Origin: a virus | Taxonomy: Duplodnaviria > Caudoviricetes | DNA length: 28,584 nt | IMG/VR virus record: IMGVR_UViG_3300020045_002388 | Span: 1 to 28,584 of that record | Direction: 5' to 3' (one strand) | Shown here: piece after piece, positions 6,597 through 20,601 of the stretch | Numbering within the stretch: position 1 is the stretch's first letter | Layout of the letters: every line of letters begins with the position of its first letter | Program-made: the position numbers and the translations under genes | The notes under the pieces: model-generated | The model's database searches: none | What the model saw: the letters and a program-made list of their open reading frames with translations, nothing else | Told to the model about the DNA's origin: nothing

Positions 6597-8284
6597 TGGC
6601 ATTTAACATAAACCCAGGTAAACAGCAGTTTACAGCAACGGCAGCACAGACAGTATTTACGTTTAATTTTGCTATCTTTGTAGATACTGATATTAAAGCA
6701 TATAAAACTTTGGCAGGTGCAGTAGCAAACGATACGACCGACCTATTAACTCTCACTACACATTACACCGTATCTATTAATGGAACGCTTGGCGGTACGG
6801 TTACGCTAGTATCAGGCGCTAGTGTTAATGATACTATTACTCTTGTACGATCGTTGCCTATTACAAGAACGACTGACTATGTAACTAACGGTGATTTATT
6901 TGCTGATACTTTAGACCTAGACCAAGACTACCAAACATATCTTGTATTAGACCAAAACGTGCAACTTCAAAGAGCCATCGTTGTTCCTGAGTCGCTTGGT
7001 AATGTAGATTTAGATATTCCAGCACCAGTAGCTAACTCATACCTACGTTGGAACGCTACGGCTGACGCACTAGAGAATGACACTTCAATACCCGATGATG
7101 TGGTTACAACTACTGCGAATGTAGTCTTAACTAATGCTGACGTAGTTTTAACCCATGCTGATGTTGTATTAACTCATGCTGATGTAGTGTTAGCTAACAA
7201 ATGGGCGGAAGAAGCGGAGGACGTAGAAGTAACTACTGGCGAATACTCAGCTCATCACTGGGCTATAAAAGCTGCGGCAAGTGCGGCAAGTTTAACAGTA
7301 GATGCAGTACCTACCGATGGAAGCGCAAATGCTGTGTCATCTAATGGTGTATTTGATGCTTTAGCGCTTAAAGCCCCACTATCTTCCCCTGCTCTTACGG
7401 ATACGCCTACTGCTCCTACTGCAACTCTAGGCACAAATACAACGCAAATTGCTACAACAGCCTTTGTATTGGCTAATGCTACTGGCACACCATCAGGTGT
7501 TCGCCAAACCGTACAATCAGGCTCAGTAGACACAAGCGGTTTTGCTAACTTCGTATCAATCGGAACAGGCCTTGCCGTAAACATTGCCGCAACTACTACG
7601 CCTATCGTAATCCATGCGGCAGGCGGTAAAGTATCAGACGACCGTATCGGTACAATTAGCGCTGACACTTCAATCACAGGGCTTACCGCAAACAGCACGA
7701 ATTACCTATACGCTGATGTAGCATCAAATGGCGTAGTAACACTATCGGCTAATGTAGTCGCTCACTTAGAGCAATTTGGAGGTACTCCAGCGGTTACAAA
7801 CAATCTTACAACATTCAATTACAGCGGTATGACAGGCTATACAGGTAACGGTGCAACTGCTCCACAATCTTGGCGTGTTCCTATCGGTGAAGCAGTTACA
7901 AATGCTACCAACGTCACAAGCGTTGTAAACTATGCCCTCAATGGTCAATATGACAGCGGATACACTGCAACACTTCCATCGGTAGCGGCGGCAGTATCAA
8001 AAAATCATAACATTGGTACTGACATTCTAAAATGCTCAATAAGGGTAAAATGTACAACCATTGATGCTGGTTTTGCGGTAGGTGATATCTTTGATGATAT
8101 TTCAACTGTCGGGGGGGGAATATATCCTATGCAATTGAACATCGTTAGAACTAATAAAATAATGAGTTTCACAACAGGTGACGGTGGTGGTGGATGGCGC
8201 ATTACCAATAAATCAACTGGTAGTTTAGCGGCAGTAACCCTCGCAAGTTGGTCGTATAAACTCATAGCACAGAGAGGATTTTAA
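6596..8284 (+). CDS. Tail fibre protein
   Basis: T7 gp17-like N-terminal adaptor (FTFNFAIF...YTVS...GGTVTL...ITLVR); APLSSPALTDTPTAPT...NTTQIATTAFV fibre motif; Thr/Ala/Gly-rich distal part. Confidence 0.85.
   Translation: MAFNINPGKQQFTATAAQTVFTFNFAIFVDTDIKAYKTLAGAVANDTTDLLTLTTHYTVSINGTLGGTVTLVSGASVNDTITLVRSLPITRTTDYVTNGDLFADTLDLDQDYQTYLVLDQNVQLQRAIVVPESLGNVDLDIPAPVANSYLRWNATADALENDTSIPDDVVTTTANVVLTNADVVLTHADVVLTHADVVLANKWAEEAEDVEVTTGEYSAHHWAIKAAASAASLTVDAVPTDGSANAVSSNGVFDALALKAPLSSPALTDTPTAPTATLGTNTTQIATTAFVLANATGTPSGVRQTVQSGSVDTSGFANFVSIGTGLAVNIAATTTPIVIHAAGGKVSDDRIGTISADTSITGLTANSTNYLYADVASNGVVTLSANVVAHLEQFGGTPAVTNNLTTFNYSGMTGYTGNGATAPQSWRVPIGEAVTNATNVTSVVNYALNGQYDSGYTATLPSVAAAVSKNHNIGTDILKCSIRVKCTTIDAGFAVGDIFDDISTVGGGIYPMQLNIVRTNKIMSFTTGDGGGGWRITNKSTGSLAAVTLASWSYKLIAQRGF
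7121..7198 (+). repeat. Degenerate 21-bp tandem repeat (~3.7 units) encoding VVLT(N/H)AD heptads
   Basis: Units start at 7121, 7142, 7163 and 7184 (partial); mostly synonymous differences between units. Confidence 0.9.
8111..8118 (+). repeat. Poly-G tract (G8) in the distal tail fibre
   Basis: gtc ggg ggg gga; a conspicuous G run in an AT-rich genome. Confidence 0.9.
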
Positions 8285-10394: not shown

Positions 10395-10604
10395 ATGAAC
10401 CCATACACAACACTAGCCCTTCAATACCTCGCAGTACCGCTATTAAAAGGTATTGCCAACGTATCAATTGCTATGCTTAAAAAAGCTCCTAACGGCATCC
10501 CCAAGAAACTCGCCCTAACACTCTTAGAAGCGATCACAGAAAGTGAAGCCAACGGAGTAAGTCAAGATCACGTTAAACAAGCAAAAGAAGTATTACAAGC
10601 TTAA
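10395..10604 (+). CDS. Small amphipathic protein, possible lysis accessory
   Basis: AAGGAG RBS; follows the endolysin; no lipobox Cys. Confidence 0.55.
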   Translation: MNPYTTLALQYLAVPLLKGIANVSIAMLKKAPNGIPKKLALTLLEAITESEANGVSQDHVKQAKEVLQA

Positions 10605-10605
10605 T

Positions 10606-10627
10606 CTAAGCTATCATGCTATAAAAT
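10606..10627 (+). promoter_or_regulatory. Putative promoter driving sRNA-1
   Basis: CTAAG (10606)-N11-TAAAAT (10622), the same spacing as the other promoters; TGnTATAAA overlaps it. Confidence 0.55.
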
Positions 10628-10632
10628 TACCT

Positions 10633-10702
10633 GTTCCTATCTAGGACACCTCATCTATTCACCTCCTCCTAGTCGTCCTGCTCATCACAGGGCGATACTT
10701 TT
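10633..10702 (+). ncRNA. Predicted small RNA with anti-Shine-Dalgarno/anti-start-codon loop (sRNA-1)
   Basis: Promoter upstream; stem ctagga (10641-46)/tcctag (10667-72) around loop cacctcatctattcacctcc; terminator hairpin follows; no + strand ORF. Confidence 0.55.
10673..10702 (+). terminator. Rho-independent terminator-like hairpin
   Basis: tcgtcctg-ctcatca-cagggcga followed by tactttt. Confidence 0.6.
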
Positions 10703-10733
10703 CGACAACCTCTTATAAAAGAGCGTCGTTTTT
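10703..10733 (+). terminator. Second terminator-like hairpin
   Basis: cgac..ctctt-ataa-aagag.gtcg followed by ttttt. Confidence 0.5.
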
Positions 10734-10741
10734 ATCTACAA

Positions 10742-10763
10742 TTAAGAAACATAGTTTTATAAT
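10742..10763 (+). promoter_or_regulatory. Putative promoter for sRNA-2 and/or the early operon
   Basis: TTAAG (10742)-N11-TATAAT (10758). Confidence 0.65.
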
Positions 10764-10769
10764 ACACCC

Positions 10770-10816
10770 ATACCTAATCCACCTCTCGTTCTGGAAGTGC
10801 AAACGATTAGGTTTTC
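10770..10816 (+). ncRNA. Predicted hairpin RNA with bulged CCACCTC (sRNA-2)
   Basis: acctaa/ttaggt and tcgtt/aacga stems with an unpaired tccacctc; T-run after the stem. Confidence 0.35.
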
Positions 10817-10845
10817 AATTTTATTTATCAAGCTATTGGTAAATA

Positions 10846-10965
10846 GACTTCTAGGTGTTCAAGCCTTAGGGGGCAGTATTCACTTGGGTACTGCTTTCTC
10901 GAATTGAATAGCTAGAAGTTGCGTATTAGCAAAGAGAACTTGAACACCTCTCAATAAAACTTCTA
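10846..10965 (+). ncRNA. Structured leader / antisense-type RNA switch
   Basis: Rod-like hairpin 10846-10920; 10853-63 is perfectly complementary to 10939-49; 10913-20 is complementary to 10958-65. Confidence 0.55.
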
Positions 10966-10975
10966 AATCATATGT

Positions 10976-11824
10976 TTGAAAGCATACATGGAAACTACAC
11001 AGTTATATATTCTCACTGCTGGAGAATATTATAAAATCGGTATAACCAAGAGTATAAAAAACAGAGTCAAGCAAATACAGACAGGATGCCCTCTAGAGAT
11101 TAGAGATGTATACTTTGTCGAATTTGACAATAAATTTCAGGCTTTAGAAGCAGAAAAAAAACTCCATTCTTTTTTTGTATCAGCCTCAACATCAGGCGAA
11201 TGGTTTTTATCAAAGCAGGGATGGTTAAAAAATGCAGAGGATGCAATAAGGGTTATAAAAAACGACCTATTAGTGTATCTAAAAATATACAAAACATCCC
11301 CAAACAATAGGCATATATATTCGGATGCCCTTAGTAGAATTATGCAAGATAACACACTTGTAACTAGAAACAAATTGGAGCTTGTAAATATATATAAATC
11401 TGATTTACTAAAAGCTGGTGGGCAACAAGATATTATACTACGCATTGAAAAAACACAGTCTAAATTACTTAGACAACTTGCTATTTCTGAAAAAGATATT
11501 AATAAAGATGACTTTAAAAGAATAATGGGTGCTAGGCGTAGGAATGATGAAAACACAAATGTTATCAAAATAAAAAGTATTTCTACTTTTGGTAAAAATA
11601 AATTAACAAAAGCAAATATTAAAGACGTAAAAAATATAGAACAAGAAATAAAAAAATGCAATATTGGTGCAGATTTGCCAATATTAGAAGAAATAAAAAA
11701 TACCTACCCACATTTAAGTAAAATGTGTGAAAGCCAAGTGTTAAGAATAAATAAAAAGATAAATAAGGTTTCTAAAAATAACCCTTGCATCGGCAAAATT
11801 ATCAATAATAAGGAGAATGTATAA
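10976..11824 (+). CDS. T5orf172/Mug113 (GIY-YIG-like) domain protein
   Basis: LYIL....YKIGIT....R..QIQTGCP....EKKLH.....GEWF. Start may be ATG 10988. Very AT-rich. Confidence 0.8.
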   Translation: MKAYMETTQLYILTAGEYYKIGITKSIKNRVKQIQTGCPLEIRDVYFVEFDNKFQALEAEKKLHSFFVSASTSGEWFLSKQGWLKNAEDAIRVIKNDLLVYLKIYKTSPNNRHIYSDALSRIMQDNTLVTRNKLELVNIYKSDLLKAGGQQDIILRIEKTQSKLLRQLAISEKDINKDDFKRIMGARRRNDENTNVIKIKSISTFGKNKLTKANIKDVKNIEQEIKKCNIGADLPILEEIKNTYPHLSKMCESQVLRINKKINKVSKNNPCIGKIINNKENV

Positions 11825-14608: not shown

Positions 14609-14674
14609 TAAAACATAACACACTTTATACTTAATTAAGCTAAACAATGCTACTATTTTAAATACCAATGGAGG
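14609..14674 (+). repeat. 66-bp perfect direct repeat, copy 1 (promoter + RBS)
   Basis: Identical to 20276-20341; contains the CTTAATTAAG palindrome, TGnTACTAT -10 (14651) and GGAGG. Confidence 0.95.
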
Positions 14675-14682
14675 TGAAGAAG

Positions 14683-14751
14683 ATGAGTTACGAAGAAGCA
14701 AAGACAGGCGAAAAGCCAAACAGTTACAGAACAAAAAAGGCAGGACAATGA
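14683..14751 (+). CDS. 22-aa leader peptide MSYEEAKTGEKPNSYRTKKAGQ (not in ORF track)
   Basis: GGAGGTG RBS; its TGA overlaps the ATG of the Sak gene. Confidence 0.6.
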   Translation: MSYEEAKTGEKPNSYRTKKAGQ

Positions 14752-16582: not shown

Positions 16583-16637
16583 CTTAATACTTAATTAAGC
16601 TTAGTTAGTCTATAATTGTTCTACAAGATACGGAGGT
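16583..16637 (+). promoter_or_regulatory. Promoter related to the 66-bp repeat
   Basis: atacttaattaagct core, TATAAT at 16611 with the same spacing, GGAGGT RBS. Confidence 0.75.
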
Positions 16638-16642
16638 AAAAG

Positions 16643-16861
16643 ATGAATACAGATGGAAACTTAGCGGCATTAAATAGATACGAAAAACAGATGGAACAAA
16701 ATGAAAAACAAACAGAGCGTGAAATTAAAGAATTTCGTGACTCAATGGATGATTATGTTGATCTAATCGTAACAGCTTTTAATAAAGAAGCTAAGCATAG
16801 CAATATAAACCGTAATGAGTTAAAGGCTATTTTGCTTGAAGATTTAGGAGAGCAGTTGTGA
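16643..16861 (+). CDS. Hypothetical protein
   Basis: Strong RBS behind a promoter. Confidence 0.7.
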   Translation: MNTDGNLAALNRYEKQMEQNEKQTEREIKEFRDSMDDYVDLIVTAFNKEAKHSNINRNELKAILLEDLGEQL

Positions 16862-17052: not shown

Positions 17053-17062
17053 AGGTGAAAAG

Positions 17063-17125
17063 ATGAAACAAAAACTACAACAGCTCGAAAATTGGTTCGC
17101 TGAAATAGCGGAAAGGATTTTTTGA
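17063..17125 (+). CDS. 20-aa peptide MKQKLQQLENWFAEIAERIF (not in ORF track)
   Basis: AGGTG RBS; TGATG overlap with the next gene. Confidence 0.55.
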   Translation: MKQKLQQLENWFAEIAERIF

Positions 17126-17464: not shown

Positions 17465-17904
17465 ACGAAAAACAAATGGTAGAAATGCAAAAGCATATTG
17501 AGGCGTTGCAAAAAGAAAACGAGCATTTAAAAGCTATTAGTGAAGATAATAATAAAATTATCATGATAAGATTAAACACTATCCGTAGCAAAAATATAGA
17601 ACTTGCTAAAAAGTCAAAACAATTCCGTATCATGATCGGTAGTTTCGTAATCGTGCTAACTTTTTTAGGCGTATGGATTTATGCGCTGTATTACGCAAAC
17701 AGTCTTTTAGCAACGGACAACCAAACAAAAGAGAACTGGAAGCGGTCAGCAGTCGAGTTGGATGGAAAGTACAACGATTTACAAGACGATATGAAAGCGC
17801 AAAAGAAAGCCTTTGAAGAATTAAGCAAAACGTGTACGACTGCACAAATTAAAAAAGCGGTTAAAAATACACCGCCTCCACCTATGGTAAAGGATATGAA
17901 ATGA
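17461..17904 (+). CDS. Membrane-anchored coiled-coil protein
   Basis: Central TM IMIGSFVIVLTFLGVWIYALYY flanked by coiled coils. Confidence 0.65.
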   Translation: MNEKQMVEMQKHIEALQKENEHLKAISEDNNKIIMIRLNTIRSKNIELAKKSKQFRIMIGSFVIVLTFLGVWIYALYYANSLLATDNQTKENWKRSAVELDGKYNDLQDDMKAQKKAFEELSKTCTTAQIKKAVKNTPPPPMVKDMK

Positions 17905-18311
17905 CTAAAGAAGATTTATTAAAAGAAGCATTTACTCAAAATAATGGAATTGAGGTTATTGAAGTAGAAGATATTGTGGAATTCTTCGAATCTAACATCT
18001 GTATTCCTAAAGGTGAGAATAGACACCCTTATGCTGATGTGCTACATGAATGGATTGAAGGTGTATTGATACAGTATCAAGACGTATGTGATGATACATT
18101 TAATGAACTTGCACACTCAATATCATTGCACTGTGCCAAATCATACCGCATCAAACCATCAGAGCCTATTTATGAATGGCAGTGGTATTGGTTAGACGAT
18201 GGGTTTAAACATATTTCAAATCAAAAAATGACTGAAGATGAAGCAAATAATTTTCACATTAGTAAAAACTGGCTATTCAAAGATGAAGAAACAAAGCAAG
18301 AGCGCAAGTGA
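17901..18311 (+). CDS. Hypothetical protein
   Basis: AAGGA RBS, ATGA overlap. Confidence 0.65.
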   Translation: MTKEDLLKEAFTQNNGIEVIEVEDIVEFFESNICIPKGENRHPYADVLHEWIEGVLIQYQDVCDDTFNELAHSISLHCAKSYRIKPSEPIYEWQWYWLDDGFKHISNQKMTEDEANNFHISKNWLFKDEETKQERK

Positions 18312-19147: not shown

Positions 19148-19169
19148 TTAAGGTTTATAATGTTATACT
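19148..19169 (+). promoter_or_regulatory. Putative promoter
   Basis: TTAAG (19148)-N11-TATACT (19164) with TGn extension. Confidence 0.65.
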
Positions 19170-19199
19170 TTTCCTATCAAAACAAAAGAGGTGAAGAAG

Positions 19200-19433
19200 A
19201 TGGGAAAGGTAACAGAAAACAAAAACTACAAAGTACACTTGCTTGGTAAGAAGTTAAATATAGATGGTTTTAAAGTAAATCAGCCAAAATGCTCAAATAA
19301 AATAAGTATAGGTTCTTTTACTTGTTCTCTTAATATTGCCGATGTAACTTGTAAAGCTTGTTTATCAAAAATTAAATCTTTACAATCAAGCCAAAAAGGT
19401 TTAAAAATTCTTGCTGAAATGGGGGTAAAGTAA
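19200..19433 (+). CDS. Hypothetical Zn-binding protein
   Basis: Start moved to ATG 19200 after GAGGTG; H...C...VTCKAC motif. Confidence 0.6.
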   Translation: MGKVTENKNYKVHLLGKKLNIDGFKVNQPKCSNKISIGSFTCSLNIADVTCKACLSKIKSLQSSQKGLKILAEMGVK

Positions 19434-19561
19434 TGCAACTAAAGCTAACCACAGAAGTACACGCAAAGCTTAAAGAGATGAGTGAGGCATTAAATATGCC
19501 TATGGCTCAATGTGTGAATATGCTTGTAAACCAATGGCTTAAAGAAAATAAAGGAGGATAA
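19433..19561 (+). CDS. Ribbon-helix-helix (Arc/CopG-like) regulator, 42 aa (not in ORF track)
   Basis: MQLKLTTEVHAKLKEMSEALNMPMAQCVNMLV: an alternating beta strand then two helices; TAATG overlap. Confidence 0.6.
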   Translation: MQLKLTTEVHAKLKEMSEALNMPMAQCVNMLVNQWLKENKGG

Positions 19562-20106: not shown

Positions 20107-20285
20107 AACAATGCGCCAAATGCACAGAAACGAAGCCACAAAGCGAATACCCAAAGCGAGGCTTAGGATTACGTGCGCAGTGTAAAAGTTGCTACTACAC
20201 CGCTAAAAACGCTAGACGACGAAAACCAAGCAAACAAGAGCGCATCGAAAGAATACGTGTGGCGATAAATAGCATTAAAACATAA
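20103..20285 (+). CDS. Small CxxC...CxxC Zn-finger protein
   Basis: Start moved to ATG 20103 (ATGA overlap); resembles the N-terminus of the 24704 endonuclease. Confidence 0.6.
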   Translation: MKQCAKCTETKPQSEYPKRGLGLRAQCKSCYYTAKNARRRKPSKQERIERIRVAINSIKT

Positions 20286-20341
20286 CACACTTTATACTTA
20301 ATTAAGCTAAACAATGCTACTATTTTAAATACCAATGGAGG
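20276..20341 (+). repeat. 66-bp perfect direct repeat, copy 2 (promoter + RBS)
   Basis: Identical to 14609-14674. Confidence 0.95.
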
Positions 20342-20349
20342 AGAATAAG

Positions 20350-20601
20350 ATGAAAGAAAAATTGTTTGAGATTATCTCAAATAACAAAGGCTATGCGCTT
20401 TTTGAGAAGATAGAAAAATTAATCAATGATGAAAAATTCATTACTGAAAAAGAAATGGCTATTGTTGCGGATGCTAATCTAATATCATTAATGAATATTA
20501 TAAATAATGCAGGGTGGGATACAAAAGAAAACCACTCAAGAGTTATTGATATGATTCGTCAATCATCCAGAATATATGATATTTATTTAGAGGGAGAATA
20601 A
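20350..20601 (+). CDS. Hypothetical protein
   Basis: Start moved to ATG 20350 after GGAGGAG. Confidence 0.65.
   Translation: MKEKLFEIISNNKGYALFEKIEKLINDEKFITEKEMAIVADANLISLMNIINNAGWDTKENHSRVIDMIRQSSRIYDIYLEGE

Follow-up and report, generated by a model that had tools for sequence, protein, structure and literature searches.

We identified a structured non-coding element at positions 10632-10733 of a 28.6-kb phage fragment (the whole stretch of 28,584 nucleotides that was analysed, called the window below). The element is conserved behind a predicted promoter of its own and likely encodes an RNA of ∼100 nt on the + strand; we regard it as very probably a real and previously undescribed structured RNA gene. 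Sequence comparison revealed conservation of the element, compensatory changes in three stems, a strand preference, an exposed core and a high ranking of particular start sites as partners of that core. By sequence, the features of a trans-acting anti-RBS sRNA are present, namely a stand-alone gene with a promoter, structure, and an exposed conserved seed directed at distant starts. We lean, with modest confidence, towards the reading that the element specifies such an RNA, which would repress the first gene of early operons led by a common promoter-RBS cassette.

Genes of the window lie nearly all on the + strand. Tail and internal virion genes are followed by a lysis-side cluster, the final member of this late block being a 69-aa gene (10395-10604, +). 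Replication, methylase and recombination genes and many small genes come next, leading up to the terminase. The RNA element occupies the gap 10605-10975, with the late block on one side and the early block on the other. The 69-aa protein, with which a metagenome collection was also scanned, led to seven relatives, which bring the number of copies of the element, including that of the window, to eight. In all of them the RNA gene directly follows the last late gene, in the order promoter, hairpin H1, core, hairpin H2 and hairpin H3. The 69-aa gene itself matched no PHROGs or Pfam family, and nothing was found with its protein in scans of GTDB.

The predicted promoter (10599-10627, +) consists of (C/A)TAAG, 11 nt and TAAAAT, the same layout as the early promoters, and contains an imperfect inverted repeat (10599-10611). 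The promoter proposed here in the first-pass annotation is borne out by the relatives, since the words TAAG and TAAAAT are kept in 8/8 copies while the spacer between them varies. Promoter spacing would place the transcription start near 10633. Hairpin H1 (10632-10648, +) forms the 5′ end of the predicted RNA; 92.5% of its alignment cells are paired and two of its five pairs are changed on both sides, through one alternative allele found in G005 and L042. It is followed by an unpaired, C/U-rich core of 18 nt (10650-10667, +) that is antisense to SD, spacer and AUG, with the anti-SD at 10659-10667 and the anti-AUG at 10652-10654. The core is unpaired in the predicted folds of all eight copies and is the most constant segment between H1 and H2, alignment columns 10651-10667 being invariant in 8/8 with the exception of 10655. 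The 20-nt antisense stretch originally noted is present at 10647-10666, and only once in the window. It had been described as a loop closed by a ctagga/tcctag stem; that stem is paired in 66.7% of cells, shows no compensatory change and is equalled by 500/500 shuffles. The window has two nearly equivalent folds; only one of them contains this stem, and neither pairs the core.

Downstream of the core, hairpin H2 (10672-10696, +) is paired in 100% of cells, with three of nine pairs changed on both sides and four on one side; its stem is replaced in L041 and L042, with the loop TCATC retained. H2 scored as terminator-like in the window and had been taken for the terminator of a ∼70-nt RNA. The T run that follows it, however, is 4 in the window and only 3 or 2 in five of the seven relatives, and a third conserved hairpin lies beyond the coordinates first given. 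This hairpin, H3 (10703-10728, or 10703-10733 including a run of 4-5 T, +), has a 3×1 internal loop and an ATAA loop and is a candidate 3′ end. Because the T run shrinks after H2 in five relatives and H3 is then followed by 4-5 T, a length of ∼100 nt is more likely than 70. The 3′ end is uncertain, and the RNA may be about 100 nt or longer. A new promoter of the same layout begins 9 nt beyond the T run of H3.

Across the eight copies, 97.8% of 184 cells in H1, H2 and H3 are paired and 5 of 23 pairs are changed on both sides. The covariation score of the three stems was reached by 0/500 shuffles, a test that kinship among sequences can beat, and controls slid along the alignment dropped to 35-54% paired. 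The covariation events are few (one alternative H1, in G005 and L042; one alternative H2, in L041 and L042; one alternative H3), and the evolutionary sample is narrow because six of the seven relatives bear the names of one assembly. Stem pairs changed on one side only still form G-U when read as + strand RNA but become C-A mismatches when read from the - strand, which favours an RNA from the + strand; the consensus reached -24.4 on the + strand against -18.7 on the other.

The carriers are mosaic, in that G001 and G005 have the virion genes of the window and G004 and G006 have different ones. In G007 the virion module is 83-90% alike, but the early block is different and inverted, and no copy of the RNA is present. 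These observations indicate that the element moves together with the early promoter cassettes rather than with the virion module. What follows the next promoter also varies, the gene there encoding a T5orf172 domain in the window, an Ant family protein in G001 and other families elsewhere. Each record gave one model match, that is, one copy of the element per genome. Searches of Rfam gave 0 matches in the window, with only E ≥ 1.9 for 10400-11100, and a covariance model (R1) run on 151 Campylobacterota genomes had a best E of 0.03, inside unrelated sequence; the H3 pattern was found in 0/401 in the Campylobacterota search. A loose promoter-plus-seed scan of viral contigs (47 of 64 parts) returned 114 loci with 83 distinct matches, 56 of which were plain RBSs of the opposite strand, and no new full homologue among 80 modelled loci. 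An exact 21-nt match in L002 was rejected as a homologue, as it lies in unrelated context and has no significant model score.

We then analysed the start sites that the core could pair with. Gene starts were taken from our own heuristic caller and energies from RNAduplex and cofold rather than IntaRNA, and early promoters were found with a sequence pattern that makes no use of the core (TTAAG, in most cases inside CTTAATTAAG); the promoter at 19148, which has TATACT, was added from sequence. All six start sites quoted in the first-pass annotation (14670-87, 19188-19204, 17053-66, 20337-53, 16632-46 and terS) read as given. Five of them are ranks 1-5 of the 58 called starts by core duplex energy, and four are, as had been claimed, the first genes behind four related promoters. 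The start of terS was missed by the gene caller and scored apart; at -16.6 it would rank 6 in the window, but the match is not kept in G001 (-7.8).

The best predicted target lies in cassette 1 (14635-14687, +; rank 1/58), comprising promoter, RBS and the ATG (14683) of a 22-aa ORF whose stop overlaps the start of an Erf-like gene (14748). Cassette 1 is kept in six records ahead of different genes, and in relatives it leads recombination genes, namely Sak (L037), ERF (L042), and DUF1351 followed by Bet (G001). Cassette 3 (19148-19204, +) has its start at 19200, for a 77-aa ORF (rank 2/58). A duplicate of cassette 1 (20302-20353, +) precedes an 83-aa ORF starting at 20350 (rank 3/58), with a changed SD-spacer; the promoter-RBS duplicate spans 78 nt (14609-14686 and 20276-20353) and is 97% identical. 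Cassettes homologous to it precede different genes in relatives, marking mosaic boundaries. The target in cassette 2 (16595-16646, +; start 16643, 72-aa ORF) is the weakest of the four, ranking 4/58 with the whole RNA and 5/58 with the core. The remaining site (17053-17066, +) holds the start at 17063 of a 20-aa ORF that overlaps, and is coupled to, the next start. It ranks 4/58 by core duplex and falls outside the top 8 with the whole RNA in the window, being stronger in G001 and G006.

With the whole-RNA cofold, first genes ranked 1-4 of 58 in the window, 1, 2 and 4 of 54 in G001, 2, 3 and 5 of 61 in G004, 1 and 2 of 30 in L037, 2 of 10 in L042, and 5, 6 and 7 of 66 in G006. The gene behind the promoter next to the element was not among the top starts in any record. 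With the 18-nt core, a duplex of -22 kcal/mol or lower was found for 12 of the 16 first genes behind the promoter family. Among the 284 other genes of the seven RNA-bearing records for which genes were called, none reached this value, and none did so among 277 genes from six records in which the full RNA is absent. One of these controls, G014, was later found to carry H3 and an anti-RBS-like word and is therefore not a clean negative. Its pseudo-gene 16393, which is the antisense of that word, is counted in the 0/277 and in the RNA-less filling controls described below, and is excluded from the operon-first counts and from the pairing of G014's own word. Defined mechanically, the RNA-bearing records have 41 operon-first genes. 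The 13 that reach -17 or lower are exactly those behind the promoter family and the remaining 28 do not reach it, which limits the target claim to one promoter family and not to every promoter.

AG before the ATG with a purine after it was seen in 16/16 first genes and, after collapsing by similarity, in 5/5 as against 7/64 other strong-SD starts. When the anti-SD and anti-AUG were held fixed and the five other positions of the core varied, the real core ranked 9th of 1024 fillings on the first genes, as compared with 185th on the other strong-SD genes of RNA-bearing phages and 609th on those of RNA-less records; on a stricter set of 13 genes (3 types) it ranked 5th of 1024. In the reverse search, the core was the best genome-wide complement of first-gene starts in the window and in G001. 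For G014, G007 and G002, every complement that this search returned was either coding sequence or the reverse strand of another start.

These numbers have to be read against the descent of the sites. The 16 targets are not independent and collapse to five types, or to three without three long-leader genes chosen by eye, so that the effective number of targets is 3-5, the cassettes being related by descent; their shared ancestry explains part of the match between core and targets. Among collapsed operon-first genes, RNA-bearing and RNA-less records did not differ significantly (AG in 3/29 and 2/25; p = 0.10). AG precedes early starts in 9/37 cases in G014 as compared with 7/36 in the window, in G014 mostly without a GGTG-type SD. 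On six RNA-less first genes, hand-picked and partly drawn from top-scoring lists, the real core ranked 25th of 1024, and the first early gene of G007, which lacks the RNA, still scores -20.4. Co-variation of seed and targets, which would be decisive at the level of sequence, was looked for and no case was found among the copies compared, the core being nearly invariant. G006 has a single core change with its targets unchanged, and its first genes fall to the ranks 5-7 given above. One contig of run X1 has a changed anti-AUG triplet and insertions in the core.

One alternative is that the RNA is a general anti-RBS agent, directed mainly against host mRNAs or against any strong SD-AUG, the phage match being due to an inherited strong RBS cassette. 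The near-universal anti-SD indeed supplies most of the pairing energy, AG-ATG characterises early genes across the family, a second anti-SD-like word follows the core in G001, L037 and L041, the H2 loop keeps TCATC, and the best gene sampled from Campylobacterota paired with the core at -30.3. However, that gene was the only one of 163 sampled from five Campylobacterota genomes to reach -22, and other phage genes with a strong SD, all late genes included, pair much worse than the predicted targets. The fragments of G031 yielded almost no genes. A general inhibitor would moreover strike the phage's own first genes hardest. We consider this alternative unlikely.

A second alternative is that the element forms the 5′ part of a longer non-coding leader, in which H2 and H3 serve the tRNA-like cassettes and replication genes further down as a cis element (for processing, protein binding, or antitermination of the put type) and the linker is incidental or acts in cis. 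H3 provides support for it. A model match to H3 was obtained in G014 (E 0.019 over 83 loci) and a further one in L201 by the H3 pattern, and in both all nine pairs are kept, four of them by two-sided change, with the same 3×1 internal loop and ATAA loop. In these two more distant phages a promoter precedes H3, no T run follows it, and it belongs to the 5′ portion of a longer transcript that runs on through hairpin cassettes into genes; L201 adds a tRNA-Ser and also has an H2-like stem. The H3-bearing transcripts correspond to L059 1250-1410 (minus; G014) and L201 7100-7600 (minus). Further downstream they carry a separate stem whose loop holds an anti-SD/anti-AUG-like word ∼50 nt before the first gene. 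This word, which pairs with G014's own starts at -18.8 at best, may act in cis. On these findings H3 is more than a terminator, the RNA may be released by cleavage of a longer precursor, and the unit is possibly no stand-alone sRNA. The short T runs of the window and its relatives fit such a leader, as does a tRNA-like cassette immediately following H3 in L037 (∼7650-7730) and L042 (∼570-650), whose anticodon loop measures 12 nt and which neither ARAGORN nor Rfam called; Rfam gave one tRNA on nine related loci.

The leader explanation does not account for an unpaired core more constant than H1 and H2, nor for first genes being the best partners of that core, and a second promoter follows 9 nt past the T run. 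The two stem-loops with bulges behind an early-type promoter recall HK022 put (PMC9378689), but put is reported at both early promoters with directly adjacent stems, whereas here a single copy per genome has stems 5-6 nt apart. A leader of this kind appears to us quite improbable as the whole explanation, and it would be compatible with an anti-RBS sRNA if the RNA were processed.

The remaining alternatives fare worse. The word TCACCTCCT in the core is identical over 9 nt to the 3′ tail of 16S rRNA as it stands in three Campylobacterota genomes, an identity that the first-pass annotation had remarked on, and the RNA might thus mimic the 16S 3′ end as a decoy for a host protein or nuclease that binds the anti-SD. 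The repetition of anti-SD-like words and the non-coding stacks with tRNA-like cassettes found nearby in these phages would agree with this. The core, however, ceases to follow the 16S sequence immediately 5′ of the anti-SD, where it matches the mRNA spacer and AUG instead, no such host factor was identified, and no precedent appeared among the papers listed, which makes a decoy very improbable. We give as little weight to the hairpins being just the terminator region of the late operon with a chance antisense match; their location directly after the last late gene and the terminator-like score of H2 stand against the promoter motif, H1 and the core, all conserved ahead of H2, and against the first place of the core in the reverse search. 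Least credible is a minus-strand RBS before a micro-ORF, for although an SD, an ATG and a stop after 5-7 codons occur in 8/8 copies, the peptides are not conserved (three are unrelated to the other type after codon 2, with 5 as against 7 codons), the structure covariation favours the + strand, and no phage-type promoter lies upstream on the - strand. A Csr-type sponge on the - strand was rejected, the GGA words of H1 and H2 being lost in the alternative alleles.

In the anti-RBS sRNA reading, the unpaired core would pair in trans across SD, spacer and AUG at each first gene that follows a promoter of one early family and block ribosome loading at those starts. We infer that the element is transcribed, with ends near those predicted, and that it pairs and represses in the cell. 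The promoter of the RNA has the same layout as the target promoters, and the RNA would therefore be produced together with the early mRNAs and accumulate to act as a delayed brake. Several target ORFs have 20-22 codons and overlap the next start (that of the Erf-like recombinase gene in the window), so polarity and the loss of translational coupling would carry the block down the operon. The RNA would also reach the small fraction of host starts that have this layout. The earlier proposal of a trans-acting RNA on several early operons thus retains the support of conservation, covariation and ranking, while its loop geometry, length, terminator and terS target do not stand.

More tentatively, and in our view rather doubtfully, the RNA could replace a protein repressor, with the RBS cassettes serving as RNA operators and one sRNA shutting all early operons, either as a timer in lytic growth, which is the simpler reading, or for immunity in a carrier state, which is the bolder one. 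Genes newly swapped in behind a cassette would then inherit the control. Beside this idea stand two facts, the lack of an integrase or CI-type gene in complete relatives and the second lineage (G014, L201) with H3 and a different anti-RBS word. Terminal repeats mark the G001 and G006 records as complete. A PHROGs search with the 60 window ORFs and 72 of the 112 proteins listed for G001 and G006 (the non-virion set) gave no integrase and no CI-type family, the sole exception among repressors being a weak Arc-like match at window 19433. Many proteins of these phages have no family, and a divergent repressor is therefore possible. The Arc-like ORF (19433-19561; 42 aa, E 4e-5) is gene 2 of the cassette-3 operon and a candidate binder of inverted repeats in promoters.

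Antisense RNAs are established phage regulators, c4 of P1 being one that acts on one locus. CI of P4 and c4 target the same or a neighbouring transcript, that of an antirepressor or replication operon, whereas the predicted targets here are several distant operon starts and not the adjoining leader. In the available parts of the sources, P4 CI acts on one locus by causing transcription termination (PMC4825925), and P22 sar and lambda OOP and aQ are antisense RNAs on one locus, with cis-encoded or neighbouring sites (PMC12197685). P4 CI, sar, OOP and aQ resemble the element in being, as far as these texts describe them, phage RNAs that restrain early or antirepressor functions by pairing, which is predicted here, and the Ant/Rha/KilA-type gene slot just downstream recalls antisense RNAs linked to antirepressors. 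More generally, the portion of the review consulted describes characterised phage antisense regulators as acting on one neighbouring locus and phage trans-acting sRNAs as acting mostly on host genes (PMC12197685). No phage sRNA covering the first RBS of several early operons was found among the titles and opening lines of abstracts returned from the open-access literature.

Closer in mode of action, going by the accessible text, are csRNAs 1-5 of Streptococcus pneumoniae, trans-acting RNAs of 87-151 nt with segments complementary to RBS and AUG, whose specificity was shown to reside in the SD-AUG spacer (PMC4507080). They are described there as host-encoded, CiaR-controlled siblings with host targets, in contrast to one phage copy with predicted phage targets here. 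CJnc190 and CJnc230 of Campylobacter jejuni and RepG of Helicobacter pylori are likewise described as chromosomal (PMC8687705, PMC11187230), and CJnc190 and RepG, as reported there, have the seed in a hairpin loop, whereas here it lies between hairpins and the loop-closing stem is not conserved. By analogy, and within what these sources cover, the element would work like the csRNAs and CJnc190/CJnc230 without being a member of either group (PMC4507080, PMC8687705, PMC11187230). No sequence or model match to a chromosomal homologue of the RepG/CJnc190 kind was found in 151 Campylobacterota genomes. On the target side, the nearest phage parallel is SAS/ESAS of cluster K mycobacteriophages, unrelated in sequence. 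There, genes that follow intergenic gaps have at their starts a common word containing an SD, preceded by an inverted repeat, and one lone copy faces the other way and lies apart from gene starts; the authors left an RNA or a protein partner open (PMC3203893). That reverse copy was not described as an RNA gene, whereas here it lies in a covarying structure with a promoter motif. If the anti-RBS sRNA reading is correct, a phage RNA over a start-site cassette shared by distant early promoters would constitute an RNA-level regulon that survives gene shuffling, and the element would offer a testable model for the role of such start-associated sequences with a single reverse copy, as far as the mycobacteriophage report describes them (PMC3203893).

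The host of the phage may belong to Campylobacterota, as suggested by the promoter layout and by a single protein match (45%) on a MAG contig of that phylum. The TTAAG-11 nt-TAnnnT layout, which we take to be typical of Campylobacterota, was enriched over a reversed control in two of the four Campylobacterota genomes tested. In the GTDB scan, the Gp157-like alignment matched two MAG contigs, one of Campylobacterota (45%) and one of Clostridia (44%), and because the matches are split in this way the host can only be inferred. The Erf query matched 0/151 Campylobacterota genomes. Cultured phages gave no DNA match to the window, and Erf was 56% identical or less to cultured phages among the matches listed.

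Further non-coding structures were observed in these genomes. The second promoter of the same layout behind H3 and the stem that follows it occupy window 10742-10830. L037 and L042 retain this stem with a variable insert inside it, and a similar stem lies ahead of the replication gene of G014. Over 13 nt, this second element is complementary to the RBS of the first gene at G001 21737; G001 lacks the second element itself. A long hairpin at window 10846-10951 (z -5.1), with an alternative pairing that involves 10938-10951, lies in the leader of the T5orf172-domain gene; in relatives, the leaders ahead of Ant, Rha-like or KilA-like genes are different ones and contain two stems that exclude each other. 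This arrangement is reminiscent of leaders that attenuate antirepressor genes. Stacks of long hairpin cassettes, non-coding and 450-650 nt in length, occur in G001 (17592-18107) and behind cassette 2 in G004 and G006; the cassettes are separated by AGAGCTTTT-like words, differ between phages and are in some cases tRNA-like, with no Rfam match. G014 (L059 11510-11600) and the region behind cassette 2 in G006 have a common short two-hairpin leader with CTCATC between the hairpins. In two runs, X1 and X2, summed contig depth is highest over the element, a quantity to which we give no weight.
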